From: Clostridia bacterium
GTDB lineage: Bacteria; Bacillota; Clostridia; Oscillospirales; SIG627
Direction: 5' to 3'
NCBI GenBank assembly: GCA_017537265.1
Contig: JAFYLE010000009.1
Span: 7,421 to 31,420, forward strand
Length of the DNA stretch: 24,000 nucleotides
Both the position numbers and the translations under genes were made by a program. The notes beneath the pieces are model-generated. The model was not told the DNA's origin. It worked only from the letters and a program-made list of their open reading frames with translations, and did no database searches. The number at the start of each line of letters is the position of its first letter. Within the stretch, counting starts at the first letter, position 1. Of this stretch, positions 1,580 to 24,000 are shown piece after piece.

Positions 1580-2280
1580 ACGGATTTCTGTTTGGTTTCG
1601 GCGCCATTCCCGTCTTTTCAACGGGCCTTTTCCTGCCTGCCGAGGGGGAAAATTGGTTGCCGCTCATCCTCTTGCTTCTTGCCGCGGCACTCGGTGCGTA
1701 CCTCTTGGGCAGCATCAATTCCGCCGTGCTCGTCAGCAGCGCGCTGTTCGGCAAGGACGTTCGATCCTTCGGCAGCGGTAACGCGGGCCTTACCAATATG
1801 CACCGCGTGTTCGGTGTCAAGGGCGCCCTTTTGACGCTTGTCGGCGACGTGATGAAGGCCGTTTTGTCAGTCCTGCTCGGACTTGCTCTTTGCGGCTATC
1901 AGTACGGCGGCTACACCGCGTTGGCTTTTTGCGTCATCGGTCACGCGTTTCCCGTCTTTTTCGGTTTTCGCGGCGGCAAGGGCGTGCTGAGTGCGGCGTC
2001 TGCCATCTGCTGTCTGTCACCCGTCGTGTTTTTCTGCATGATCGGTATTTTTCTTCTCATGGTGCTCACTACGCGTTACGTTTCCGTCGGCTCCGTTACC
2101 GCGGCGTTTTTCTTTCCGCTGTTTTTGAAGGCGTTTTTCGGCAGTCTGCCCTTCGTGGTGCTTGCCACCTCTCTGTTTACCGCCGTGCTCGTCATTTTCC
2201 TGCACCGCGAGAACGTGCGCCGTCTGTTGCGCGGTGAGGAGAAGAAGTTCGGACAAAAAGAACCGCCCAAAGATGAGTGA
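1576..2280 (+). CDS. plsY: Glycerol-3-phosphate acyltransferase PlsY
   Basis: A 4-nt ATGA overlap joins it to der, and GGAGAGGAGG lies upstream. It is a multi-pass hydrophobic protein with the PlsY signatures GSGNAGLTN and FRGGKGV, and der-plsY synteny is conserved. It has short N- and C-terminal extensions relative to the typical ~200 aa PlsY. Confidence 0.9.
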   Translation: MNGFLFGFGAIPVFSTGLFLPAEGENWLPLILLLLAAALGAYLLGSINSAVLVSSALFGKDVRSFGSGNAGLTNMHRVFGVKGALLTLVGDVMKAVLSVLLGLALCGYQYGGYTALAFCVIGHAFPVFFGFRGGKGVLSAASAICCLSPVVFFCMIGIFLLMVLTTRYVSVGSVTAAFFFPLFLKAFFGSLPFVVLATSLFTAVLVIFLHRENVRRLLRGEEKKFGQKEPPKDE

Positions 2281-2283
2281 TCT

Positions 2284-3417
2284 ATGAAACAAACCGTCTC
2301 TTTTTACGCATGTGATTCTTATGAGGACCGCGCCGCTCTCAAGCGCGCGGTCCTTTCTGTCATTTCCGACTGCGGCGGCTTCGACGCCCTGTTTGACCGC
2401 GGACGCCGCGTGGTCGTCAAGCCCAATCTGGTGATGAAAAAGTCGCCGGAGGGAGCCGCTACCACCCATCCCGCGCTGATGGACGTGCTTTTGGAGATCT
2501 TGCTTGAATACACCCGCGACATCCGCGTGGTCGAGTGTCCGGGCGGTCCCGGCACGCCCGCACTCGTGGAGGCGATCTATCGCACCACGGGTATTCGCGA
2601 GGTCTGCGACAGACGCGGCGTGGAGATCGTCGTTTCCCCCGAGGCGCGCACGGTCACGGTGGAAGGCGCCAAGGTCGCCTCTGCGCTTTCGCTTGCGGGG
2701 GAAATGGTGGACGCGGACGTGTTCATCAACCTCGGCAAACTCAAGAGCCACTCGCTCACCACGTTTACGGGCTGTGCCAAGAACCTTTACGGTGCCATCG
2801 TCGGGCTGACCAAGGTAGAGTACCACGCCCGTTTTGCACAGCTTTCCGACTTCGCCAACCTTATTTGCGACATCAACCGTGCACTCGTGCCCACGCTCAA
2901 TCTGCTGGATGCTGTCGTCGGCATGGAAGGCAACGGCCCCACCGGCGGCACGGCGCGTAAGATCGGCGGCATCGTCGGCGGCAACAACGCTTTTGCCGTG
3001 GACGCCATCGGCGCTCGCCTCATCGGACTTCGGGAAGAAGAGGCCCCCATTCTGTCCGCCGCCCGTGCTCTCGGCCTTTACACACCGGTGGAAGAGTGCC
3101 TCGGCGACGATTATGCTCCCTTTGTGCAGAGCGATTTTCTCTTTGCGGACGCACAGCGCTTTTCCATCTTGCGCGAGATGCCGAATCTCAAGTTTTTGCG
3201 CCGCTTTTTGGAACCGCGCCCCGTCATCTCCTCCCGCTGTGTCGGTTGCGGGGAATGTGTGCGCCTCTGCCCGAAGAGCGTCATTGAACTTCGCACGGTG
3301 AAGGGCAAAAAACGCGCGTACATTCACAAAAACAAGTGTATCCGTTGCTATTGCTGTCAGGAACTTTGTCCTGCCAAGGCCGTGGATACCAAGTCCAGAA
3401 AGATCCTGAAGATATGA
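2284..3417 (+). CDS. DUF362 domain protein with a C-terminal 2x[4Fe-4S] ferredoxin-type domain
   Basis: It has a DUF362-like core (RRVVVKPNLV..., LKSHSLTTFTGCAKNLYG, MEGNGP) and two cluster motifs, CVGCGECVRLCP and CIRCYCCQELCP. Its stop overlaps the ispE start (ATGA at 3414-3417). Confidence 0.8.
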   Translation: MKQTVSFYACDSYEDRAALKRAVLSVISDCGGFDALFDRGRRVVVKPNLVMKKSPEGAATTHPALMDVLLEILLEYTRDIRVVECPGGPGTPALVEAIYRTTGIREVCDRRGVEIVVSPEARTVTVEGAKVASALSLAGEMVDADVFINLGKLKSHSLTTFTGCAKNLYGAIVGLTKVEYHARFAQLSDFANLICDINRALVPTLNLLDAVVGMEGNGPTGGTARKIGGIVGGNNAFAVDAIGARLIGLREEEAPILSAARALGLYTPVEECLGDDYAPFVQSDFLFADAQRFSILREMPNLKFLRRFLEPRPVISSRCVGCGECVRLCPKSVIELRTVKGKKRAYIHKNKCIRCYCCQELCPAKAVDTKSRKILKI

Positions 3418-4271
3418 GTGGGAGACGACTCACCCTTTGGGCGGCCGCAAAACTCAACCTCACCCTCGGCGTGGGAGAGCGCCGCGCGGACGGTTATCAC
3501 GAGATCCGCTCCGTCATGCAGAAGATCAGCCTGTACGATACGCTCTCTTTTGCCAAGGCGGATGAGATTTGCTTTACCTCGGATCTCAAGTACCTTCCGA
3601 ATGACGAGCGCAACCTCTGTGTCAAGGCCGCACGTCTGTATTTCGAGGCTGCGGGAATTGACGGCGGCGTGGATATCCGCGTGCGCAAGGCCATTCCCGT
3701 CGGTGCGGGTCTCGGCGGAGGAAGTGCGGATGCCGCGTGCACTTTGCGCGCCCTTTGTGCACTGTACCGACCGTTGGATCGGGAGACGCTTCACGCCCTT
3801 GCCCTTTCTCTCGGCGCGGACGTTGCGTTTTGCCTGTCGGAGGACACCACGTGCCTTTGTGAGGGCGTGGGGGAGGTGCTGACTCCCATTGTCCGCGGCG
3901 GGAGTGCGCCCATTTACCTCGTGCTTGTTAAAAACGACCGCAAACTTTCCACCGCCTCGGTGTACGGTGCGTTTGACAGTATGCCCGCTCGCCCCATTCC
4001 CTCGGATGAAAAGGTGCTTGCCGCATTGCAAAGCGGAGACGCAAAACTGCTCTCCGAGAATTTGTTTAATATGTTGGAGCAGCCGGTCTTCGCGCAGAAG
4101 CCCGCGCTTTCCGATCTGCTCGCGGAATTTGCCGCCCTCGGTGCACTCGGTGCGCGCATGAGCGGCGCAGGGCCCACCGTTTACGGCGTGTTTGACAGTC
4201 AGGAGTCCGCACTCAAAGCCGCGGCTCATTTTGAGTCTGCGCCGTTTTGCCGCATCGCAACGCTTTTGTAA
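3414..4271 (+). CDS. ispE: 4-diphosphocytidyl-2-C-methyl-D-erythritol kinase (MEP pathway)
   Basis: It carries the GHMP-kinase motif PVGAGLGGGSADAA and the typical IspE N-terminus AKLNLTLGV. I chose the start at ATG 3414 (MSGRRLTLWAAAKLNL). The ORF-track start at 3336 would overlap the upstream gene by 80 nt. Confidence 0.9.
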   Translation: MSGRRLTLWAAAKLNLTLGVGERRADGYHEIRSVMQKISLYDTLSFAKADEICFTSDLKYLPNDERNLCVKAARLYFEAAGIDGGVDIRVRKAIPVGAGLGGGSADAACTLRALCALYRPLDRETLHALALSLGADVAFCLSEDTTCLCEGVGEVLTPIVRGGSAPIYLVLVKNDRKLSTASVYGAFDSMPARPIPSDEKVLAALQSGDAKLLSENLFNMLEQPVFAQKPALSDLLAEFAALGALGARMSGAGPTVYGVFDSQESALKAAAHFESAPFCRIATLL

Positions 4272-5911: not shown

Positions 5912-7429
5912 ATGAAACAGCTTAAGAGACTTGTGCTTCTTTTGCTCGTGGCAGCGTTCTGCGTTCTGCCGCTTGCTTCCTGCATCCCCGGTCGCGGCAA
6001 CGCGTTCGACGGTGGCGATCCCACTCCGATCGACCCCAACGCCAAGCCCGGTACTTACGACTATGCAAAGAGTCTTGTGCCTTCCGTCAATTACGAAGGC
6101 CGTGACTTCCGTATCCTCGTGTGTAAGTCCGTCAGCGAGTTCGACGCCAACAACGGTGACCTTGCCCGCAACGTCGTGGCAAAGGAATCCCTCGGTATTC
6201 CGATCAACGACGCCGTCCTGACCCGTAACATGGACCTGCAGACTCAGCTCGGCATCACCATCCGCGCCACGGAGAAGCCCTTCCGCAAAGTTGCGGAGGA
6301 ACTGCGCAACTCCATTCTCACGCAGGACGACCGTTACGACATCTGCTTCACCCGTTTGGACGACCTCACCCCGCTCGCCAGCGAAGGTCTTCTCGTCAAC
6401 CTTTTTGAAATGGACCTTGACCTGTCTCAGCCTTGGTGGGATCAGAACTCCATCAAGGAACTGACCATTCAGGACGAATTGTACTTTGCCGTGAGTGACG
6501 GTGACATCGTCGACAAACAGACTACCATGGCCTGCATGTTCAACAAGAAGGTCATGGACGAGCAGCAGATCGATCCCAAGAGCGTTTACGCCATGGTCGA
6601 CGAAGGCACCTGGACCATCGACGCCATGATGGATATGATCAAGAACATCAGCCCCGACAGCAGCGGCGACGGTATCAAGAATGAAGAAGATACTTGGGGC
6701 ATTTTGACCGAGTATGACTCCGCGACCTGTTTCTATTACGCGTTCGGCGGTTGCGTCACCGACAAGAACGGCTCTGACGAACCGCAGCTTCGCCTCGGCG
6801 ACAGTGACATGCGTGAAGCGGTCGATAAAGCCATTCTGACCCTGCGCGACAATGCCAACGTCTTCAAGGTCGAGCAGATGGGCGGCAACTGGCTCGCCGC
6901 CAGTGACATGTTTATCAACAACCAGGCCATGTTCCGTATCACCAACCTCACCACCACCGAGCGTTGGCGTAACATGGAGGCAGACTTCGGTATCCTGCCC
7001 ATGCCCAAGCTCAACGAAGAGCAGAAGAATTACGTCCACCTCTGCAAGAACGGTGCAACCGGCGTTTGCGTGCCCAACACCAATACCGACCTGGACTTCA
7101 CCGCCATCTGCCTTGAGGCGTTTGTGTCCTTCTCCCGCTATACCCTCCGCGAGGGCTACTTTGAATCCACCATGCAGGGCATGGTCTCCCGTGATGAAGA
7201 GACTGCCCGCATGCTCAACCTCATCTTCGACACCCGTGCCTTTGACCTCGGTTATATCTTTGACTTCGGTTGCAGCGAGGCCGGTATGATGGACGGCACC
7301 GGTTACCTTCTCAAGAAGATCGCCGCCGATCTTTCCACGCAGTTTGGTTCTTCGTGGGACTCCATTCGCGACAAAGCACAGGCCCAGATCGACGACATGC
7401 TCGATACGCTGGAGAACTCCCGCATCTAA
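5912..7429 (+). CDS. Extracellular solute-binding lipoprotein (ABC-type, family 1-like, ~500 aa class)
   Basis: It has a signal peptide with the lipobox LPLASC (Cys24). Its size and composition are typical of large carbohydrate-binding SBPs of Firmicutes. GGAGG lies upstream. No permease or ATPase genes are adjacent. Confidence 0.7.
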   Translation: MKQLKRLVLLLLVAAFCVLPLASCIPGRGNAFDGGDPTPIDPNAKPGTYDYAKSLVPSVNYEGRDFRILVCKSVSEFDANNGDLARNVVAKESLGIPINDAVLTRNMDLQTQLGITIRATEKPFRKVAEELRNSILTQDDRYDICFTRLDDLTPLASEGLLVNLFEMDLDLSQPWWDQNSIKELTIQDELYFAVSDGDIVDKQTTMACMFNKKVMDEQQIDPKSVYAMVDEGTWTIDAMMDMIKNISPDSSGDGIKNEEDTWGILTEYDSATCFYYAFGGCVTDKNGSDEPQLRLGDSDMREAVDKAILTLRDNANVFKVEQMGGNWLAASDMFINNQAMFRITNLTTTERWRNMEADFGILPMPKLNEEQKNYVHLCKNGATGVCVPNTNTDLDFTAICLEAFVSFSRYTLREGYFESTMQGMVSRDEETARMLNLIFDTRAFDLGYIFDFGCSEAGMMDGTGYLLKKIAADLSTQFGSSWDSIRDKAQAQIDDMLDTLENSRI

Positions 7430-7578
7430 CAGAGCTTGAGGTTACGGTTTTATCTTAAAAACTGTTGCGATCATCTACCTTTTGACCAAGGTCTGCACCT
7501 GCGGCTCCAAGGCGTGTAAAGCCGAGGAAGCAGAGGGCAAGGCCGTCAAGACCGACATTGACTGACAACTGCATAAAA

Positions 7579-7792
7579 CGCTGAGAACGAGGGGCAAACA
7601 CCTCAAGTCTGTGACTCCAGAGAGGCCGGAGGATGGAAACGGCTGTCACGGCGGTGGGCGCATTTCACTCGGGAGCGGCGCGGGGGATAATCCCGCGACG
7701 GCACCGTCCGTAAACCGGTTTTTAAGTGATAAATAAGGGTGGTACCGCGACCTTGTTCGCCCCTGTGAAAACAGGGGCGAATTTTATTTTTT
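7579..7792 (+). promoter_or_regulatory. T-box riboswitch leader, Phe (UUC) specifier, controlling pheST
   Basis: The stem I base is CGC-UGAGAA-CGAG (7579-7591) pairing with CUCG-GGA-GCG (7668-7677), which is K-turn-like. An AG-bulge CCAGAGAG is at 7617-7624. The specifier UUC (7664-7666) is followed by A7667 immediately 5' of the closing helix. The T-box motif GGGTGGTACCGCG is at 7737-7749, with UGGU able to pair with an ACCA 3' end. A terminator hairpin follows. Confidence 0.9.
7756..7792 (+). terminator. T-box leader terminator (alternative to the antiterminator)
   Basis: TTCGCCCCTGT (7756-7766) pairs with ACAGGGGCGAA (7771-7781) around a GAAA loop, followed by TTTTATTTTTT (7782-7792). Confidence 0.9.
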
Positions 7793-7825
7793 GCGAAAAA
7801 TTTGATTCATATAAAAGGAGACAAT

Positions 7826-11367: not shown

Positions 11368-11793
11368 ATGGCAGAGAGTAGAGTCAGAGAAAGAGAGACT
11401 GCATTTCAGCTTCTCTTTTCCGCCGAGTTTCAGAAGGACACCCCCGCAGAAGAGGTTTTGGCGGACTATTTGGAAGCAGAAGAATTGGACGTAGTTTCCG
11501 AGTACGTAAAGTCCACCTTCCTCGGCGCCCGCGCCTACCGTGAGGAGGCACTCGCACTTGCCCTGTCCGCGTCTCGCGGCTGGTCGTTGGAGCGTATGTC
11601 GCCCGCCATGCGTGCACTTTTGACACTCTCTCTTTATGAGATCTTAAAGACCGATATCCCCACCGGCATTGCCGCAAACGAGGCGGTGGAACTCGCCAAA
11701 CGTTATGAGGACGAGAAAGGCGCCAAGTTCTTAAACGGCATCCTCGGCACCATCTCCCGCGCCCACGCGGCGGAAAAGGAACAGACGAATTAA
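11368..11793 (+). CDS. nusB: Transcription antitermination factor NusB
   Basis: The 141-aa protein has a NusB-like N-terminus (RERETAFQLLFSAEF) and core (LLTLSLYEIL..., INEAVELAKRY-type pattern, FLNGILG). GAGAGGAA lies upstream. Confidence 0.9.
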   Translation: MAESRVRERETAFQLLFSAEFQKDTPAEEVLADYLEAEELDVVSEYVKSTFLGARAYREEALALALSASRGWSLERMSPAMRALLTLSLYEILKTDIPTGIAANEAVELAKRYEDEKGAKFLNGILGTISRAHAAEKEQTN

Positions 11794-11794
11794 C

Positions 11795-12724
11795 ATGGAG
11801 TTTTGCCTCGGAATCGATACCAGCAATTACACGACCTCTCTTGCCGCGGTATCCCTTTGCGGCGGTGAGGTGCTTTCAGTGCGCAGGCTTTTGGAGACAC
11901 CCGCGGGACACGTTGGGCTTCGCCAGAGCGATGCGCATTTTTTGCATACAAAAAATCTGCCCGACCTCTTTGACGAACTCTCTTCGCGCCTACCTGCAGG
12001 CGCGAAATTCGTGCGTGTCGGCGTTTCCACACGCCCGCGCGGCGTCGAGGGTTCGTATATGCCTTGTTTTCTTGCGGGCGTGGCAAGTGCGAAGGCCGCG
12101 GCAACTGCCGCGGGAGCAAGCCTTTTTGAGACGAGTCATCAGGAAGGGCACGTTGCCGCGGCGCTTTATGGTTGCCCCGATTTTCCGACGGTAAGCGAAT
12201 TTTATTCCATGCATCTCTCCGGCGGCACCATGGAACTTTTGAAGGTCACTGACAGCGAGCGCGGCTACGAGACAAAACTTGTCGCCGCCACGCTTGACGT
12301 CACCGCGGGCCAACTCATTGACCGCGTCGGCGTGCACATGGGCCTCGCTTTTCCCTGTGGAAAAGAGCTGAGCCGCCTTGCCCTTTGCGCAACGAAGAAG
12401 TTTGACCGTGTCAAGCTTTCCGTCAAATCCGACGGCATCAACCTATCCGGCTTGGAGAACCGTGCAAAAATGCTTTTCGACAAAGGGGAGAAGCGTGAGG
12501 ACGTGGCCGCGTTTCTGCTGCGTGAGATCGCGCGCGCCATCGTCGCTTTGTACGAGTTCGGGGATACGTCACTGCCGCTTCTGCTTTGCGGCGGTGTGAG
12601 CGCAAGTGCGTATCTCAGGGAGAAGATCACACATCAGAACGTCTACTTTACCGACCCTGCACTTTGCACGGATAACGCCGTCGGCGTCGCCCTGCTTGCG
12701 CGGGAGAAAGGGGGAGAGAAGTGA
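11795..12724 (+). CDS. TsaD/Kae1/TsaB-family (peptidase M22, ASKHA fold) paralog of unknown function
   Basis: It has an N-terminal ASKHA phosphate-1-like GIDTSNYTTSLA, an SHQEGH motif that aligns with the HxxxH metal site of TsaD, and a C-terminal CGGVSAS. It starts 1 nt after the nusB stop, and its stop overlaps the xseA start. Confidence 0.65.
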   Translation: MEFCLGIDTSNYTTSLAAVSLCGGEVLSVRRLLETPAGHVGLRQSDAHFLHTKNLPDLFDELSSRLPAGAKFVRVGVSTRPRGVEGSYMPCFLAGVASAKAAATAAGASLFETSHQEGHVAAALYGCPDFPTVSEFYSMHLSGGTMELLKVTDSERGYETKLVAATLDVTAGQLIDRVGVHMGLAFPCGKELSRLALCATKKFDRVKLSVKSDGINLSGLENRAKMLFDKGEKREDVAAFLLREIARAIVALYEFGDTSLPLLLCGGVSASAYLREKITHQNVYFTDPALCTDNAVGVALLAREKGGEK

Positions 12725-13935
12725 GAGAGCCCATCACCGTCACCGCCGTCAACGAGTACATCAAGACGCGCCTGGATCAGGACGTGCATCTGCAGAACGT
12801 TGCCGTGCGCGGAGAGATCTCCAATTTTACCAATCATTATAAGAGCGGTCACTTCTATTTCACCTTGAAGGATGAGGGCGGCGTGCTGCGCGCCGTCATG
12901 TTTAAGTACAGCGCACAGAAGATCGCCTTCACCCCGGAAAACGGCATGAAGGTCGTTGCCACGGGGCGCATCTCATCATTCGTGCGCGACGGTCAGTATC
13001 AACTTTACTGCGAGAGCATGGAGCCGGACGGCATCGGCGCCTTGTACCTTGCATTTGAACAACTCAAAGCGCGCCTTGCCGCAGAAGGTCTCTTTGACGA
13101 AAGCTTGAAGAAGCCTCTACCCAAGTGTCCCTTGAAGGTGGGTGTCATCACCTCACCCACGGGCGCGGCGGTGCGCGACATCATTCACGTGGCAGGCCGC
13201 CGTTTTCCGCTTGCCAAACTCGTGTTGAATCCCGTTTTGGTGCAGGGAGAGGGCGCCGCACCGCAGCTTGTCGCAGCCGTGCGCTACTTCAACGAGGTGT
13301 ACCCCGTCGACGTCATTCTCATCGGCCGCGGCGGCGGTTCTCTGGAGGAACTTTGGGCATTTAACGATGAGGCGCTTGCCCGCGAGATTTCAAGGAGCCG
13401 CATTCCCGTTGTCAGCGCCGTCGGACACGAGACGGACTTTACCATTTGCGACTTTGTCTCCGACTTGCGCGCGCCGACGCCTTCCGCGGCGGCGGAAGTG
13501 GCGCTTCCCGACAAGGACGACATGCGCCGCAAGTTTTCAAACGTGCAGGACGTGCTCTCGCGCATTCTGCTCTCGCGCATCGAGCGTGAGCGTGCACGCG
13601 TGAATGTTTATGCACAAAAAGCGGTACTTTCCTCGCCCATCGGCTTTTTGTCCGAACGCAGAATTCCCGTGGATCGCGCACAGGATGCACTGTGCCGCGC
13701 CATGGATCAGAAGGTCGAGCGCGCCGGGAGCGCCGTGTCCACCCTCGCCGCAAAACTGGATGCCTTGAGCCCGCTTGCCGCATTCTCGCGCGGCTACGGC
13801 GCGGTTCTGACCCCCTCGGGACGCGCCGTCACCCATATTGAAGACGTGCAAATCGGGGATGAGATCACTTTGCGTACCTGTGGCGGAAGAGCCACTGCAA
13901 CCGTTGACCGTATTGAAAAGGAGAGCGTGAAATGA
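12721..13935 (+). CDS. xseA: Exodeoxyribonuclease VII large subunit
   Basis: A GTG start sits in a GTGA overlap. It has an N-terminal OB fold (VAVRGEISNFTNHYKSGHFYFTLKD) and the catalytic-core pattern GRGGGSLEELWAFNDE, SAVGHETD. Confidence 0.95.
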   Translation: MREPITVTAVNEYIKTRLDQDVHLQNVAVRGEISNFTNHYKSGHFYFTLKDEGGVLRAVMFKYSAQKIAFTPENGMKVVATGRISSFVRDGQYQLYCESMEPDGIGALYLAFEQLKARLAAEGLFDESLKKPLPKCPLKVGVITSPTGAAVRDIIHVAGRRFPLAKLVLNPVLVQGEGAAPQLVAAVRYFNEVYPVDVILIGRGGGSLEELWAFNDEALAREISRSRIPVVSAVGHETDFTICDFVSDLRAPTPSAAAEVALPDKDDMRRKFSNVQDVLSRILLSRIERERARVNVYAQKAVLSSPIGFLSERRIPVDRAQDALCRAMDQKVERAGSAVSTLAAKLDALSPLAAFSRGYGAVLTPSGRAVTHIEDVQIGDEITLRTCGGRATATVDRIEKESVK

Positions 13936-14165
13936 ACGAAAATAAGTTGAATTTCGAAGAAAGCTTGAAGCGGCTGGAGGCTATCACCCGTGCTTTGGAG
14001 GCGAGCGAAACGCCGCTTGAAGAGGCGCTGAAACTTTTTGAAGAGGGCACCGCTCTCGTGCGCGCACTCACCGGTGCGCTCGACGAGGCTACCCAGCGCG
14101 TCACCATGCTGCAAAACCCGGCGGCAGGTTCTGTCGAGGAAGCGGATTTTACCCCCGCACAGTGA
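13932..14165 (+). CDS. xseB: Exodeoxyribonuclease VII small subunit
   Basis: An ATGA overlap joins it to xseA. The 77-aa helical protein has the typical FEESLKRLEAI...LEEALKLFEEG pattern. Confidence 0.9.
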   Translation: MNENKLNFEESLKRLEAITRALEASETPLEEALKLFEEGTALVRALTGALDEATQRVTMLQNPAAGSVEEADFTPAQ

Positions 14166-14178
14166 AAGAGAGTCCCTC

Positions 14179-14207
14179 TTGCAAAAAATTAATAATTATG
14201 CTATAAT
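14179..14207 (+). promoter_or_regulatory. Near-consensus sigma-A promoter with extended -10, driving the large ncRNA
   Basis: TTGCAA (14179-14184), a 17-nt spacer, then TGcTATAAT (14199-14207). It begins 14 nt after the xseB stop. Confidence 0.8.
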
Positions 14208-14213
14208 CCACTT

Positions 14214-14852
14214 TGATGGTGCAGTATCCTAGTAAGGACAGTCCTTTTTGAAAACGGGCCTAAAAATCCGTCAAAGGGCACATCGATGAAGCATTTTGTG
14301 CCTGCTTCGTACGCCCAGTATGGGGTGGGTGCTGAATGAGTGGACTTGTGGGCAATCGCAATGGCATGCGGCAACTGTCCCACTCGTTCTTGGAGGCCTT
14401 ATGCCGTGGGGGCTCTTTTGTTCCTACGGGTAAGGGGTAAACCTGTCACGCGGTACGATTTTGATGCTGTGGGCAGTGTAGCCTGCCTTGAGTGGGTGTG
14501 GCGAATCACGGAACACACCGGGGCTTCCGGCCGGAAGACCCTTAGGTGATTGCCGGGTGAAACCATGGCTGCAAAAGAGGCTGAGAAAGGCTCTGTTCTT
14601 TGGAGGAAATCTCCTAGGCTGTTTTGTTTACAAAGGCATAAAAGGGATTGCAGTGCGACCTCATCGGCAATCGAGTCCCGATACACGGCGACGGTATCGG
14701 CTTCGCTTTAAAGGGGAACCGCTTTTTCGGCAACGGGAAGTAGCGAATGGGGAAACGCCAACTCGACCTTAAGCCGCAACATTTACTTTTTATGCTGCCA
14801 TCAACCAAGTCATCAATATGCCTTTTCGTGTCGTTGCGGGAAGGCATATATT
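14214..14852 (+). ncRNA. ole: Large structured non-coding RNA, OLE-class (ornate, large, extremophilic RNA); ends approximate
   Basis: The interval has no RBS-supported ORF, has its own promoter, and contains many local helices (for example 14277-14302, 14404-14429, 14495-14519, 14521-14541, 14678-14700, 14816-14849). Its length of ~640 nt and the synteny xseA-xseB-[RNA]-small membrane protein-dxs-tlyA-nadK-argR-recN match published OLE loci. I did not verify conserved OLE nucleotides. Confidence 0.75.
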
Positions 14853-14879
14853 ATACAAACGGACTTTTTCGGAGGAATT

Positions 14880-15503
14880 TTGGACACATCTCCCATCCCC
14901 CCCGCGCGACGTGAGCGCGAGGAAAAAAACAAAAAGAATAAGCGCCGCCGCAGCCACGTCAACTGGAAGTGGGTCTTCACCGTCTTTGGGCTGAGTCTTC
15001 TCATTTCCATGGTGCTCGCCGTGCTCTCCAGCACGCTGGAGACGATGAATATCTTCGTCGGTTTCATCGTTTTGCTTCTGGTCATCGCCCTCGGTGTTGT
15101 GTTTGACTACATCGGTCTTGCGGTGGCAAGTGCAGACGCGGGCAATTTCCATTCCATGGCCGCCCACGGCAGTCCTTACGGCGCCAAAGGCGTGTGGCTC
15201 ATCAATAACGCGGAGAAGGTCTCCTCGTTTTGCAACGACGTCATCGGCGACATTTCCGGTATTCTTTCGGGTGCCATCGGCGCCACACTTTCCATTTCGC
15301 TCTTTGCGGCGGATACTCCGTGGGGCTTTTGGGGCGATCTGCTTCTCTCCGGCGCCATTTCCGCCATTACCGTCGGCGGCAAGGCCATTTTCAAGGGACT
15401 TGCACTTGCCAACAGTCAGAAGGTCGTGTATTTCCTCTGTGGCGTCCTCTGTCTGTTCTCCCGCAAGAAACAGCCGCAAAAAGCCAAGAAAAAACAAAAA
15501 TAA
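14880..15503 (+). CDS. oapA: OLE-associated membrane protein A-like (4-5 hydrophobic segments, basic termini)
   Basis: A TTG start follows GGAGG (14871-14875). The 207-aa protein has an N-terminal ARREREEKNKKNKRRRSH and a C-terminal SRKKQPQKAKKKQK. Hydrophobic segments lie at about aa 30-50, 57-82, 121-142, 148-168 and 181-193, and there is an NDVIGD acidic pair. It sits immediately 3' of the large RNA and 5' of dxs, as reported for oapA. Confidence 0.7.
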   Translation: MDTSPIPPARREREEKNKKNKRRRSHVNWKWVFTVFGLSLLISMVLAVLSSTLETMNIFVGFIVLLLVIALGVVFDYIGLAVASADAGNFHSMAAHGSPYGAKGVWLINNAEKVSSFCNDVIGDISGILSGAIGATLSISLFAADTPWGFWGDLLLSGAISAITVGGKAIFKGLALANSQKVVYFLCGVLCLFSRKKQPQKAKKKQK

Positions 15504-15518
15504 AGGCATTTTGTCAGC

Positions 15519-17363
15519 ATGAAAACATATTCACAGGAAGAGCTCAAGGCGCTCACCACGCCGGAGGCAAAGACGCTTTGCGAAGACATACGTCGGTACT
15601 TGGTAGACCAAGTGATGAGTACCGGCGGTCATCTTGCGTCCAACCTCGGCATCGTGGAGGTGAGCCTTGGGCTTTTGCGCGTTTTCAACCTGCCTGACGA
15701 TCACGTTCTTTACGATACCGGGCACCAGAGCTACGTTCACAAGATCTTGACCGGCCGCGCGCAGGCGTTTTCCGCTCTTCGCACGTACGGCGGCATTTCG
15801 GGTTTTCCCAAGCGCAGTGAGAGCGAGTTCGACTCGTTCGGTGCAGGGCATTCGGGCACGGCGGTTTCGGCCGCCTTGGGTTTTTCGCGCGCGCGCGCGT
15901 TGCAAAACCCCAAGGATCACAGCCAGCACACCGTTGCTGTCTTGGGTGACGGCGCCCTGACTTGCGGCATGGTGTACGAGGCACTCAACAACATCCGTCC
16001 CTCGGACAATCTGATCATCATCTTAAACGACAACGATATGTCCATCTCCAAGAGCGTGGGCAGGCTTTCGCGTTACCTCTCCAAGGTGCGTAAGAGCAAG
16101 CGTTATCTCTCCATGAAGGTCAAGAGCCATCACGTGTTGGATCGCATTCCGCTCGTCGGCGCAGGCATTGAGCGCGGTCTTTCCCGTATGAAGCGCTCGC
16201 TCAAGTCCATCGTTTACCGCTCCAATCTGTTTGAACAACTCGGCATTTATTACCTGGGTCCCGCAAACGGCAATAATTTGGAAGAGGTCGAGCGTCTGCT
16301 GATCGAGGCGCGCCGTCATCGCGGGCCTGTTTTGGTGCATTTCATCACCAAGAAAGGCTGCGGTTACGCTCCTGCAGAAGAGGATCCCGGCCGTTATCAT
16401 TCCGTCTCCGCTTCCGCAGGGGAGTGCGTGACGTTTTCCGAGAAATTCGGCGAGACGCTGTGCGAACTTGCGTCCGCGGACGACAAGGTTGTCGCCATCA
16501 CCGCCGCCATGGAATCCGGCACGGGGCTTTCTGCTTTCCACAGCCGTTTTCCCAAGCGGTTTTACGACGTCGGCATTTCCGAAGAGCACGGCATGACCTT
16601 TGCCGCAGGTCTCTCCGCAGGCGGAGTCAAGCCGGTGTTTGCCGTGTACAGCACGTTCTTCCAGCGCGCGTACGACCAACTATTCCACGACCTTTCCCTG
16701 CAGAATCTCGGCGCCGTTGTGGCGCTGGATCGCGCGGGCTTTGCGGATACGGACGGACCGACGCACCACGGTCTTTTTGACGTCTCTCTCACCTTGGGGT
16801 TGCCCGGTGTGGAGGTGTATTCTCCCGCAACGCACAGGGAACTTTGCCGCACGCTCAGGGCCGCGGTGAAGGATTTTGATACCGCGACCACCGTTTTGCG
16901 CTATCCCAAGGGAAGTGAAAAGGCAGAGATCGTCCGTAGATTTCCCTGCAACGGGAACGTTGAGCGTTGGGACAGCGGTCAGAACGCACGCGTTCTGATC
17001 TTGACGTACGGCAGAATTACCGAACAAGCACTTCTTGCAGCGGACCGCCTCAAGGCCGTCGGCGTGGAATGCACGGTTGTCAAAATTTTAAAACTCAAGC
17101 CCTTTGACAGAGAGGCACTTGCTCACGTTCTTCGCGACGACGTTTTTGATCTTTGCTACTGTTTGGAAGAGGGGATCTTGTCCGGCGGCTTCTTTGAGGG
17201 GCTCGTGCTTCGCCTCTCTGCGGAAGAGCGGCTGATCGCCAATCGTTTTTCCATCCGCGCCGTGGAGGACAGTTTCGTTCCGCACGGCAAGTACGCGGAA
17301 TTGATCTCCCACACGAAATTGGACGCCACGAGCGTCTCGCGTGAGATCGCAAGTCTTCTCTGA
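15519..17363 (+). CDS. dxs: 1-deoxy-D-xylulose-5-phosphate synthase (MEP pathway)
   Basis: The 614-aa protein has the TPP-binding motif GDGALTCGMVYEALNN, GHQSYVHKILTGR, and transketolase-like pyrimidine-binding and C-terminal domains. Confidence 0.95.
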   Translation: MKTYSQEELKALTTPEAKTLCEDIRRYLVDQVMSTGGHLASNLGIVEVSLGLLRVFNLPDDHVLYDTGHQSYVHKILTGRAQAFSALRTYGGISGFPKRSESEFDSFGAGHSGTAVSAALGFSRARALQNPKDHSQHTVAVLGDGALTCGMVYEALNNIRPSDNLIIILNDNDMSISKSVGRLSRYLSKVRKSKRYLSMKVKSHHVLDRIPLVGAGIERGLSRMKRSLKSIVYRSNLFEQLGIYYLGPANGNNLEEVERLLIEARRHRGPVLVHFITKKGCGYAPAEEDPGRYHSVSASAGECVTFSEKFGETLCELASADDKVVAITAAMESGTGLSAFHSRFPKRFYDVGISEEHGMTFAAGLSAGGVKPVFAVYSTFFQRAYDQLFHDLSLQNLGAVVALDRAGFADTDGPTHHGLFDVSLTLGLPGVEVYSPATHRELCRTLRAAVKDFDTATTVLRYPKGSEKAEIVRRFPCNGNVERWDSGQNARVLILTYGRITEQALLAADRLKAVGVECTVVKILKLKPFDREALAHVLRDDVFDLCYCLEEGILSGGFFEGLVLRLSAEERLIANRFSIRAVEDSFVPHGKYAELISHTKLDATSVSREIASLL

Positions 17364-22347: not shown

Positions 22348-22382
22348 CCCCGCACTCATCTGTTTGTGCGGGGCGTTTTTTG
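22348..22382 (+). terminator. Rho-independent terminator ending the ole...recN-tyrS unit
   Basis: CCCCGCAC (22348-22355) pairs with GTGCGGGG (22366-22373), followed by a T-run at 22376-22382. Confidence 0.8.
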
Positions 22383-22389
22383 TCTTGGG

Positions 22390-22427
22390 AAAAAGAAAAA
22401 GAACCGCAGACTGCGGTTCTTTTTTTA
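22390..22427. terminator. Bidirectional terminator hairpin in the tyrS/folD convergent gap
   Basis: AAGAACCGC (22399-22407) pairs with GCGGTTCTT (22413-22421). It is flanked by an A-rich run on the 5' side and T7 on the 3' side, so it can serve folD on the minus strand. Confidence 0.75.
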
Positions 22428-22434
22428 TGCCTTT

Positions 22435-23283
22435 TTATTTTGCCGCGTTCTTTGCGGCAGTCAGAGTGTTCTGCAGGAGCATGGTGATGGTCATGGGGCC
22501 GCAACCGCCGGGTACGGGGGTGATGAAGGAGGCTTTTTCCTTTACGGCGTCAAAGTCCACGTCACCGCAGAGGCGTCCGTTCTCGTCGCGGTTCATGCCC
22601 ACGTCAATGACCACGGCGCCGTCCTTGACCATGTCTTGCGTGACGAATTTCGCACGGCCGATGGCAACGACCAGAATGTCAGCCTCCCGCGTGATGTCTG
22701 CAAGGTTTTGGGTTTTGGAGTGGCAGACGGTCACCGTCGCGTTTTTGTGCAGCAGCAACATTGCCTGCGGTTTTCCCACGATGTTGCTGCGGCCGATGAC
22801 GACAGCGTTTTTGCCCTCTACGGGGATGTCGTACTCGTCAAGCAGTGCCATCACTCCCGCGGGCGTGCAGGGGAGGAAGTCGGGATTTCCCACCATGATG
22901 CGCCCCACGGACGCGTAGCCGAAGGCATCCACGTCTTTTTTGGGGTCAATGGCTTCGATCACCGTCACTTCGTCGATGTGGCGCGGAACGGGAAGCTGCA
23001 CGAGAATGCCGTGGATCTTGTCGTCTGCGTTGAGTTTTGCAATGAGCTCCAGCAGTTCTTCCTGCGTGGTCGACTCCGGCAGGCGGTGTACTTCGGAGTA
23101 GAAGCCCACCTCAAGGCAGGCGAGTTCTTTGTTTTTTACGTAGGTTTGGCTGGCAGGGTCTTCACCCACCAGGATGACCGCGAGACCGGGCTTTTTACCG
23201 TAAGTCTCCTCGTAGGAGCGCACTTGTTCGGCAAAGCGCGCGCGCAGTTTTTTGCTGGTCAGTTTTCCGTCAAGCAGCGTCAT
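22435..23283 (-). CDS. folD: Bifunctional methylenetetrahydrofolate dehydrogenase/cyclohydrolase
   Basis: The 282-aa protein has the motifs [33 protein letters not shown] and PGGCGPMT. Confidence 0.95.
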
Positions 23284-24000
23284 GCTTCATTCTCACTTTC
23301 GTTTTCTTCTTCTTTCATTTCGGCAGGCTTTGCCTTTTTCGCACGCAAGAATCCCAGCACGAACAGACTGCCGAAGAGCAAAAAGCAAACGAGCCCCACA
23401 AGACCCGCAATGCGCATGCCCAGAACCACGGGGCTTGAGTCAATGCGGAAGAATTCCACGATCATGCGGCCCAATCCGTAGAAGGCGAGGTAGAACAGGA
23501 AGATCTCGCCGTCGTACTTCTTCGCGCGGTAGAGGAAGAAGTGGATGATCACGAGCAGAGTAAAGTTCCACAGCGATTCGTAGAAGAAGGTCGGGTGGTA
23601 GAATTCGGTGACGTTCTCGGTAATGCCGAGGCCCATGCGCCAGGGCAGATCGGTCAGGGAGCCGTAGGCTTCGCCGTTGACGAAGTTGCCCCAACGGCCG
23701 ATCATTTGACCGATGATCAGGCAGGGGGAAAAGGCGTCAAGCACGGCAAAAAGGTTGAGTTTTTTGATCTTGGTGTAGAAGATGATGACGAGGATCCCCG
23801 CGATGATGGAGCCGTAAATGGCACCGCCGCCGTTCCAGATGGCGATCCATTCAAGGAAGGGGCGACCGATGTAGTGGTCCAGTTCCATCAGCACGTGGTA
23901 GAGACGTGCACCAATGATGCCGAAGGGGATGATGAGGAGCAAAAGGTTGAGGAAGTCGTCCATGCTCACACCCTCGCGCTTGGTCGTGCGGATTCCGTAA
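23280..24000 (-). CDS. lgt: Prolipoprotein diacylglyceryl transferase; the 5' end lies beyond the window
   Basis: It has the Lgt signatures [23 protein letters not shown] and WRMG, on a multi-pass membrane protein. The frame stays open upstream of the ORF-track GTG at 23969 (..[16 protein letters not shown]..), so the gene is truncated by the window. Its stop overlaps the folD start (ATGA). Confidence 0.9.

Follow-up and report, generated by a model that had tools for sequence, protein, structure and literature searches.

The interval between xseB and a gene for a small membrane protein in the genome of an uncultured Clostridia bacterium almost certainly encodes OLE (ornate, large, extremophilic) RNA in its full-length form, with the gene of the membrane partner of this RNA, OapA, next downstream. 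The stretch of DNA that was analysed (the window) consists of 24,000 nucleotides and corresponds to positions 7,421 to 31,420 of contig JAFYLE010000009.1 in assembly GCA_017537265.1; all coordinates given here are those of the window. OLE is a known RNA (Puerta-Fernandez et al. 2006) that was already included in release 9 of Rfam. When the entire window was scanned with Rfam 15 at gathering thresholds, a single match was obtained, RF01071 (OLE) at 14200-14817 on the forward strand, with a score of 424.6 bits (gathering score 50) and an E value of 9.6e-122, extending over model positions 1-616 of 616 without truncation. Projection of the RF01071 consensus structure onto the window gives 143 canonical pairs out of 155 (92%), and the window is identical to the consensus at 221 of the 249 highly conserved (upper-case) positions. 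A preliminary description of this DNA, made from its letters without database searches, had proposed an OLE-class RNA on the basis of size and context and had suggested a search with the Rfam OLE covariance model and an alignment with homologous intergenic regions. Both were carried out: the search is significant over the full length of the model, the alignment with 25 other regions reveals strong covariation, and the class assignment is thereby borne out. As judged from the sequence, no point was counted against it.

The RNA proper extends from P1 to P1, 14215-14802, and is 588 nt long, about 50 nt shorter than the ~640 nt initially estimated; members of the family have about 600 nt, with about a quarter of the positions highly conserved. 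The landmarks of the family are all found in the sequence: the P2 palindrome, the A-rich loop L4, the kink-turn (k-turn) elements in J4a/5 and J6/7, the palindromic loop L9.3 and P13. Two variant types of OLE lack or shorten P7 and P8 (PMC11332333). In the window P7, P8 and P9 are of consensus length, and P13 keeps the geometry of the site for OapB, a GNRA loop with a single bulge, so that this is an RNA of the full-length type and the reduced variants 1 and 2 are ruled out. The host fits Bacillota, as the OapA protein matches a hypothetical protein of 'MAG: Clostridia bacterium' with 100% identity and spoIIR lies within the window. Among the matches listed, the nearest loci from GTDB belong to metagenome-assembled genomes (MAGs) of rumen or gut Clostridia and Oscillospiraceae, and the host is apparently a gut- or rumen-associated anaerobe, a lifestyle deduced from the sources of related genomes. 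Altogether 2,822 OLE copies across Bacillota were catalogued in 2024 (Fernando and Breaker 2024, PMC11332333), and OLE from non-extremophilic gut anaerobes has already been described. The OLE of the window is an ordinary, typical full-length copy of a known kind from an uncultured gut- or rumen-type Clostridia genome.

How well is the fold supported by comparison? The window RNA was aligned using MAFFT with 25 others, five from closer relatives fetched via their OapA proteins and 20 from GTDB loci (the closest of which is L005). The pairs counted were those of the Rfam structure plus three helices outside it that were derived from complementarity (P1, P2 and P3/P3.1), and the controls were alignments in which the partners were slid by 1-3 columns and 500 shuffles. 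Over the 26 loci, 86.6% of the cells form standard pairs, as compared with 38-47% in the slid controls, and compensatory changes on both sides occur in 136 of 182 pairs. The covariation score is 0.468, against 0.12-0.16 in the slid controls and 0.196 in the shuffles, and none of the 500 shuffles reaches the observed value by any measure. Over 14215-14802 the RNA is 90-95% identical to those of relatives whose OapA proteins are 67-81% identical, and 81-82% identical to those of relatives whose OapA proteins are 57-58% identical. The RNA is thus more conserved than the neighbouring protein, which points to a functional gene rather than a relic.

The elements of the fold are as follows, with P-numbers mapped from the text descriptions in PMC12265935 and PMC12286853:

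14215-14220 with 14797-14802, forward strand: P1, 96% paired in the 26 sequences, 5 of 6 pairs changed on both sides.
14222-24 with 14619-21 and 14228-32 (CCUAG palindrome) with 14614-18, forward strand: P2, derived from complementarity, 100% paired.
14234-41 with 14593-600 and 14243-47 with 14586-90, forward strand: P3/P3.1, derived from complementarity, 13 bp enclosing domain 1.
14253-14272, forward strand: P4 hairpin, an Rfam helix with the A-rich loop L4, CCUAAAAAUC.
14273-14291, forward strand: joining region J4a/5, AAAGGGCACAUCGAUGAAG, nearly invariant in the 26 sequences.
14292-14338, forward strand: P5/P5.1 hairpin, 20 bp, loop GCCCA (14313-17).
14342-14389, forward strand: P6/P6.1 hairpin, Rfam helices with a UGGC-containing loop (14361-66).
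14390-14396, forward strand: J6/7, UUGGAGG, 3′ of P6/P6.1.
14397-14414 with 14419-14435, forward strand: P7, of consensus length.
14443-14456 with 14464-14476, forward strand: P8, of consensus length.
14485-14581, forward strand: the long P9 arm, Rfam helices with 29 of 32 pairs canonical and a palindromic terminal loop, GGCC (14529-14532).
14603-14796, forward strand: 3′ domain (domain 2), Rfam helices comprising hairpins at 14603-13 and 14623-34 and a multi-branch region closed by 14635-45 with 14786-96.
14679-87 with 14692-99, forward strand: P13, GCGA loop at 14688-91 and a single bulged A14685 two pairs below the loop.
Inside the 3′ domain, forward strand: P14.1 hairpin, GCAA loop (14730-33), the second GNRA loop.

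P1 pairs both ends of the RNA and thereby defines the 588-nt molecule. P3/P3.1 shows double changes at all 13 pairs, yet only 70% of its cells pair, because MAFFT misaligns this variable stem. The derived helices fit the published OLE structure, in which P2 carries the palindromic OapA site and P3 plus P3.1 amount to about 12 bp (PMC12265935). In P5/P5.1 all 20 pairs are canonical in the window, 94.6% of the cells are paired and 11 pairs have double changes, and in helices 20-22 of the 3′ domain, which have many double changes, pairing reaches 95-99%. P13, whose GNRA loop sits two pairs above a 1-nt bulge, has the geometry of the OapB site (PMC7936274).

Several loops resemble those involved in dimer formation. 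The sequence UAAAA of L4 is invariant in the 26 sequences (UAAAAAU in the window), and L4 forms the A-A dimer bridge in the cryo-electron microscopy (cryo-EM) structure (PMC12286853, PMC12265935). In the alignment the GGCC loop of P9 changes only to other palindromes, GCGC in one locus (L017) and AGCU in two (L007 and L078), a pattern consistent with an intermolecular kissing loop; such palindrome-to-palindrome variation has been reported for the L9.3 kissing loop (PMC12286853). The GGG/CCC pairs and GAG of P6/P6.1-J6/7 are invariant in the alignment. From the sequence we infer a k-turn in which J4a/5 would provide the bulged strand (U83 and C84 of the C-helix, loop GAU at 14285-87, then G88 and A89) and J6/7 the non-bulged strand. 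AUC-GAU-GA of J4a/5 and GGAGG of J6/7 can be drawn as a canonical k-turn with C84-G95, U83-G96, G88-A94 and A89-G93. An arrangement of this kind between J4a/5 and J6/7 has been seen by cryo-EM (PMC12286853), and the k-turn reading also draws on PMC9723947.

The preliminary description had listed seven local helices, and four of them are real: 14404-12/14421-29 is part of P7, 14521-28/14533-41 forms the tip of P9, 14678-84/14694-700 corresponds to P13, and the hairpin at 14816-49 lies outside OLE. The other three (GGCACA/TGTGCC, GGCAG/CTGCC and GGTGTG/CACACC) are outside the conserved fold, and each uses a strand of a helix supported by covariation. A long-range pairing suggested between CTTAGG and CCTAGG likewise clashes with a supported helix, CCUAGG being paired with CCUAG at 14228-14232 in P2. 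All the complementary segments were found where they had been placed except CCTAGG, which is at 14613-14618 and not at 14603-14608. Taken as a set, the three discarded helices and the long-range pairing have a covariation score of 0.167 in the 26 sequences, against 0.158 in shuffles, a value reached by 82 of 500 shuffles. In the 26 OLE RNAs about 90% of the cells would allow GGCAC in J4a/5 (14277-14281) to pair with GUGCC in the 5′ strand of P5 (14298-14302), and the changes are all one-sided. The pairing is in competition with P5; it may represent an alternative conformer, as the region is known to switch structure, or be coincidental.

Upstream of the RNA, a consensus scan located the following promoter:

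14179-14207, forward strand: sigma-A-type promoter of ole, with -35 TTGCAA at 14179-14184, a 17-nt spacer and the extended -10 element TG-c-TATAAT at 14199-14207.

It has 10 of 12 matches plus the TG extension. In seven close relatives CTTG(C/A)A and TATGCTATA(A/C)T do not vary, and the adjoining 3′ end of xseB diverges; both the scan and this conservation agree with the sigma-A promoter noticed earlier at this position. An element resembling TG-n-TATAAT is found within a few tens of bases 5′ of the first conserved RNA block in about 20 of the 26 OLE loci, and the ole gene of Halalkalibacterium (Bacillus) halodurans is reported to have a promoter of its own inside a larger operon (PMC9723947). 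From the end of the -10 box at 14207, transcription is predicted to start at about 14213-14216, around the first base of P1. The RNA of the window would be made from its own sigma-A promoter, starting within a few bases of 14215.

The interval itself, from the xseB stop codon (14165) to the TTG start codon of oapA (14880), is 714 nt long (715 nt by the initial count). It is, as had been noticed, the only long gap in the string of genes from nusB to tyrS, in which all other junctions overlap or are at most 16 nt. Open reading frames (ORFs) within it are limited to 53-95 codons (60-95 in the first account) and overlap one another on both strands. Its guanine-plus-cytosine content is lower than that of the flanking genes (0.49-0.56 vs 0.55-0.62), also as had been anticipated.

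The gene downstream of the RNA is as follows:

14880-15503, forward strand: oapA, 207 aa, TTG start, ribosome-binding site GGAGG at 14871-75, DxxxD motif (D120-D124, NDVIGD), Lys/Arg-rich termini.

The protein had been described only as a small membrane protein, and by its sequence and predicted fold it is an OapA homologue, a small multi-pass membrane protein. According to published work, OapA resembles CNNM domains and is told apart from them by the DxxxD motif, its hallmark (PMC11332333). D120 and D124 (D120-V-I-G-D124) are invariant in an alignment of 19 homologues, and Lys and Arg together make up 11 of the 30 N-terminal and 8 of the 16 C-terminal residues. A large protein collection contains 4731 homologues, some of them annotated as CorB or CNNM or carrying weak PF01595 matches. 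Among the matches listed from GTDB species representatives, the best OapA is 58% identical and the window genome itself was not returned. All of the 20 GTDB loci with OapA homologues that were scanned have a full-length OLE immediately upstream of the homologue, with scores of 345-558 bits. The window OapA has no match in Pfam and only a sub-threshold match to an unrelated membrane protein in NCBIfam, and among PDB chains its sequence has no informative match (an unrelated channel subunit, E 0.75). An AlphaFold2 model (predicted local distance difference test, pLDDT, 73.5) is all-helical, with long helices at 29-53, 58-84, 111-143 and 149-177. The top six PDB matches of this model by Foldseek are all CNNM/CorB/CorC transmembrane domains (7M1T, 7M1U, 7CFG, 7CFF), a statistically weak result in line with the published comparison of OapA and CorB. 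Genes for OapB, OapC and MpfA are not among the ORFs scanned within the 24-kb window, a scope at which this says little.

Between the RNA and oapA there is one further structured element:

14816-14849, forward strand: conserved hairpin outside the OLE model, 15 bp, core GCCUUUUCG / CGGGAAGGC at 14820-28 / 14838-46.

In the seven relatives the core of the stem is invariant and the loop is variable. The minimum free energy of an 83-nt segment containing it is -23.1 kcal/mol (z = -2.9). A terminator scan of the window did not flag this hairpin, because no U-tract adjoins it, and in the window a canonical intrinsic terminator is unsupported here. At other OLE loci ole and oapA are anything between about 0 and more than 800 nt apart, and clear terminators occupy this position in several of them. 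The hairpin may be a leaky terminator or a protector of the 3′ end that allows some read-through into oapA. Two loci in the comparison depart strongly from the usual layout: in L017 the OLE (1474-2192) is about 820 nt away from oapA, and in L041 the OLE (2179-3023) has an insertion of about 230 nt in P7.

Can the interval be explained in another way? Its structured part might be mainly a long cis-acting 5′ leader of an oapA-dxs operon, riboswitch-like or an attenuator, instead of a stand-alone RNA. It indeed has the orientation of oapA, from which its end is separated by 78 nt, with no canonical intrinsic terminator in between, the hairpin at 14816-49 being without an adjacent U-tract, and ole of H. 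halodurans is inside a polycistronic transcript (PMC12265935). However, P1 pairs the element's own ends into a closed 588-nt unit, the distance to oapA varies over the family as described above and true terminators follow OLE in several loci, and OLE RNA is known to accumulate as an abundant, stable species and to bind proteins in trans (PMC9723947, PMC12265935). We therefore regard the leader as very unlikely; co-transcription with oapA is in any case compatible with an OLE RNA. Nor is the sequence likely to be a decaying, non-functional copy of OLE, a possibility to which we assign hardly any weight. The 28 of 249 highly conserved consensus positions that differ, together with a score of 424.6 bits in the lower half of the range of the 20 other loci (345-558), speak for decay, but 92% of the consensus pairs are canonical, most of the differences are common to close relatives and compensated, the RNA is better conserved than the protein next to it, and both the promoter and an intact oapA are kept. 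Least probable of all, to the point of being effectively refuted, is that the ORFs of 53-95 codons on the two strands include at least one real gene. An automatic gene caller did place a 53-aa gene inside the OLE of a relative (L089, 2275-2436). In the window, however, the ORFs are short and overlap one another, none has a ribosome-binding site, substitutions among relatives track base-pair covariation and not codon structure, and the RNA model accounts for the whole interval. The 53-aa call in L089 is itself an example of how such a locus is mis-annotated.

Three observations weigh against the identification of a typical ole-oapA locus. First among them in position, the window clade has no ispA, a gene commonly found right next to ole, between xseB and ole. 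Next, J5/6 (14339-14343) reads GAGUGG (as in the window) or GAUUGG in this clade, compared with the consensus UUAAGG. The structural match of OapA to CNNM proteins, finally, is weak (E 0.05-0.7, template modelling score 0.3-0.5) and was obtained with a model of moderate confidence. The deviation in J5/6 makes k-turn 1a, published as a pairing of J4a/5 with J5/6, look non-canonical; this k-turn may not be formed in the window clade, and the k-turn of J4a/5 with J6/7 would stay canonical. It is conceivable, though on balance we consider it unlikely, that the clade is distinguished by two features together: a J5/6 unable to form k-turn 1a, and an invariant-stem hairpin acting as an attenuator that would set the ratio of RNA to OapA. 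This proposal is drawn from seven sequences and a k-turn reconstruction from the text of a paper. If it is true, the clade would be a natural test of which OLE k-turn is functional.

If the locus holds an OLE RNA with its OapA, as we believe, an outline of its expression and action can be proposed. To judge from sequence conservation, the RNA would be transcribed from its own sigma-A promoter, starting near 14215, and its ends paired by P1 to give the 588-nt molecule, with the downstream hairpin limiting or stabilizing the 3′ end and some read-through reaching oapA. By homology to OLE of H. halodurans and the Clostridium cryo-EM structures, the RNA may dimerize via the loops L4, L5/L6 and L9.3. 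OapA, a CNNM-like putative divalent-cation transporter, would tether it at the membrane, where OapB, OapC and bS21 would be recruited. Such a particle would make the cell more tolerant of Mg2+, alcohol, cold and carbon-source stress, and the most plausible route is regulation of an OapA-dependent ion flux. The OLE biology on which this homology reading is based has been described in several studies (PMC12265935, PMC11332333, PMC12054373, PMC9723947, PMC7936274, PMC12286853), and according to a recent proposal the OLE dimer crosses the membrane. For the organism of the window, a particle with OapA, OapB and OapC, its dimerization, its tethering to the membrane and its role in stress are extended by homology and should be read as predicted features.

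The surrounding genes, assigned using Pfam and NCBIfam, are those of an OLE-type neighbourhood, which contains genes for DNA repair, isoprenoid synthesis, translation and NAD as well as an arginine regulator: nusB, xseA, xseB, dxs, tlyA, nadK, argR and recN were all found. The order that had been read from the sequence (nusB, xseA, xseB, the RNA, the small membrane protein, dxs, tlyA, nadK, argR, recN) is confirmed. The genes are located as follows:

11368-11793: nusB.
11795-12724, forward strand: divergent TsaD-like gene.
12721-13935: xseA.
13932-14165: xseB.
15519-17363, forward strand: dxs.
3′ of dxs, in order: tlyA, nadK, argR, recN, tyrS.
3336-4271, forward strand: ispE.
Farther upstream: der, plsY, a DUF362 ferredoxin protein gene, ispE, spoIIR, an AP endonuclease gene, a 505-aa ORF, pheS, pheT.

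Two genes of the methylerythritol phosphate (MEP) pathway, ispE and dxs, are thus near ole. The TsaD-like gene occupies a place, between nusB and xseA, that in many Bacillota is taken by folD, and it encodes a 309-aa protein of the TsaD/Kae1 family that scores far below the TsaD cut-offs (91 bits vs 208, and 87 vs 296). Four relatives (L085, L087, L088 and L090) have the same arrangement, as does a further contig of the organism itself (L001), and the protein may be a divergent paralogue. The 505-aa ORF (5912-7429, forward strand) has no match in Pfam or NCBIfam, and a 371-aa ORF (22366-23481, forward strand) has none in NCBIfam. A second long non-coding gap, 7430-7801, is located upstream of pheS, outside the nusB-tyrS string. 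It contains a T-box leader (7574-7767, forward strand) 5′ of pheS-pheT, which was missed by the default Rfam scan because its score, 71.9 bits, is below the gathering score of 93. In a local search it has an E value of 9.8e-16, with the model matched over its full length and part of the consensus stem III region missing.

What does this copy add? It leaves the knowledge of OLE unchanged, as the family is catalogued and the member typical. It has a modest value as an additional annotated ole-oapA locus, a kind of locus that is left blank or given spurious small ORFs by standard gene callers. The J5/6 sequence, the 3′ hairpin and the absence of ispA are small clade differences that can be used in comparative work on OLE, on limited evidence and with interest mainly for specialists. 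The case also confirms that a reading of raw sequence alone can recognize OLE from its size, promoter and gene neighbourhood.

Comparison with known systems places the window copy as follows. The CNNM-domain Mg2+ transporters MpfA, CorB and CorC may be distantly similar to OapA in fold, the best PDB matches of the OapA model being CNNM transmembrane domains (7M1T, 7M1U, 7CFG), and some OapA homologues have weak or faint PF01595 matches. OapA differs from these transporters by its DxxxD motif and by the lack of CBS and CorC domains, and the window protein has no Pfam match. OLE variant 1 (TANB77) and variant 2 (RF39) belong to the same family and also come from uncultured gut bacteria (PMC11332333), whereas P7, P8, the whole length of P9 and the OapB site of P13 are all retained in the RNA of the window. 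The OLE dimers of C. acetobutylicum and C. botulinum solved by cryo-EM (PMC12286853, PMC12265935) use bridge loops whose sequences are present in the window (the A-rich L4, GCCCA of L5, UGGC of L6 and GGCC of L9.3), and the J4a/5-J6/7 k-turn can be drawn canonically in the window as well, a comparison made between sequence elements; P7 of the window, in contrast, is among the shorter ones in the alignment. With the ole-oapA locus of H. halodurans, the experimental model, the window shares a promoter of its own for ole inside a cluster of genes on the same strand, the DxxxD motif of OapA, the GNRA loop and one-base bulge of P13 that form the OapB site, and the k-turn elements. It differs in having GCGA in place of GUGA in the P13 loop and A in place of U as the bulged base. 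From the full-length OLE represented by RF01071, the window departs in that its host is an uncultured gut or rumen anaerobe and not a classical extremophile (already known for the family), in lacking ispA between xseB and ole, in its deviating J5/6 and in a clade-specific conserved 3′ hairpin. It agrees with this type in the match to the full model, the major helices from P1 to P14, a length of about 590 nt, a Clostridia host, oapA directly downstream and the neighbours xseA, xseB, dxs, tlyA, nadK, argR and recN.

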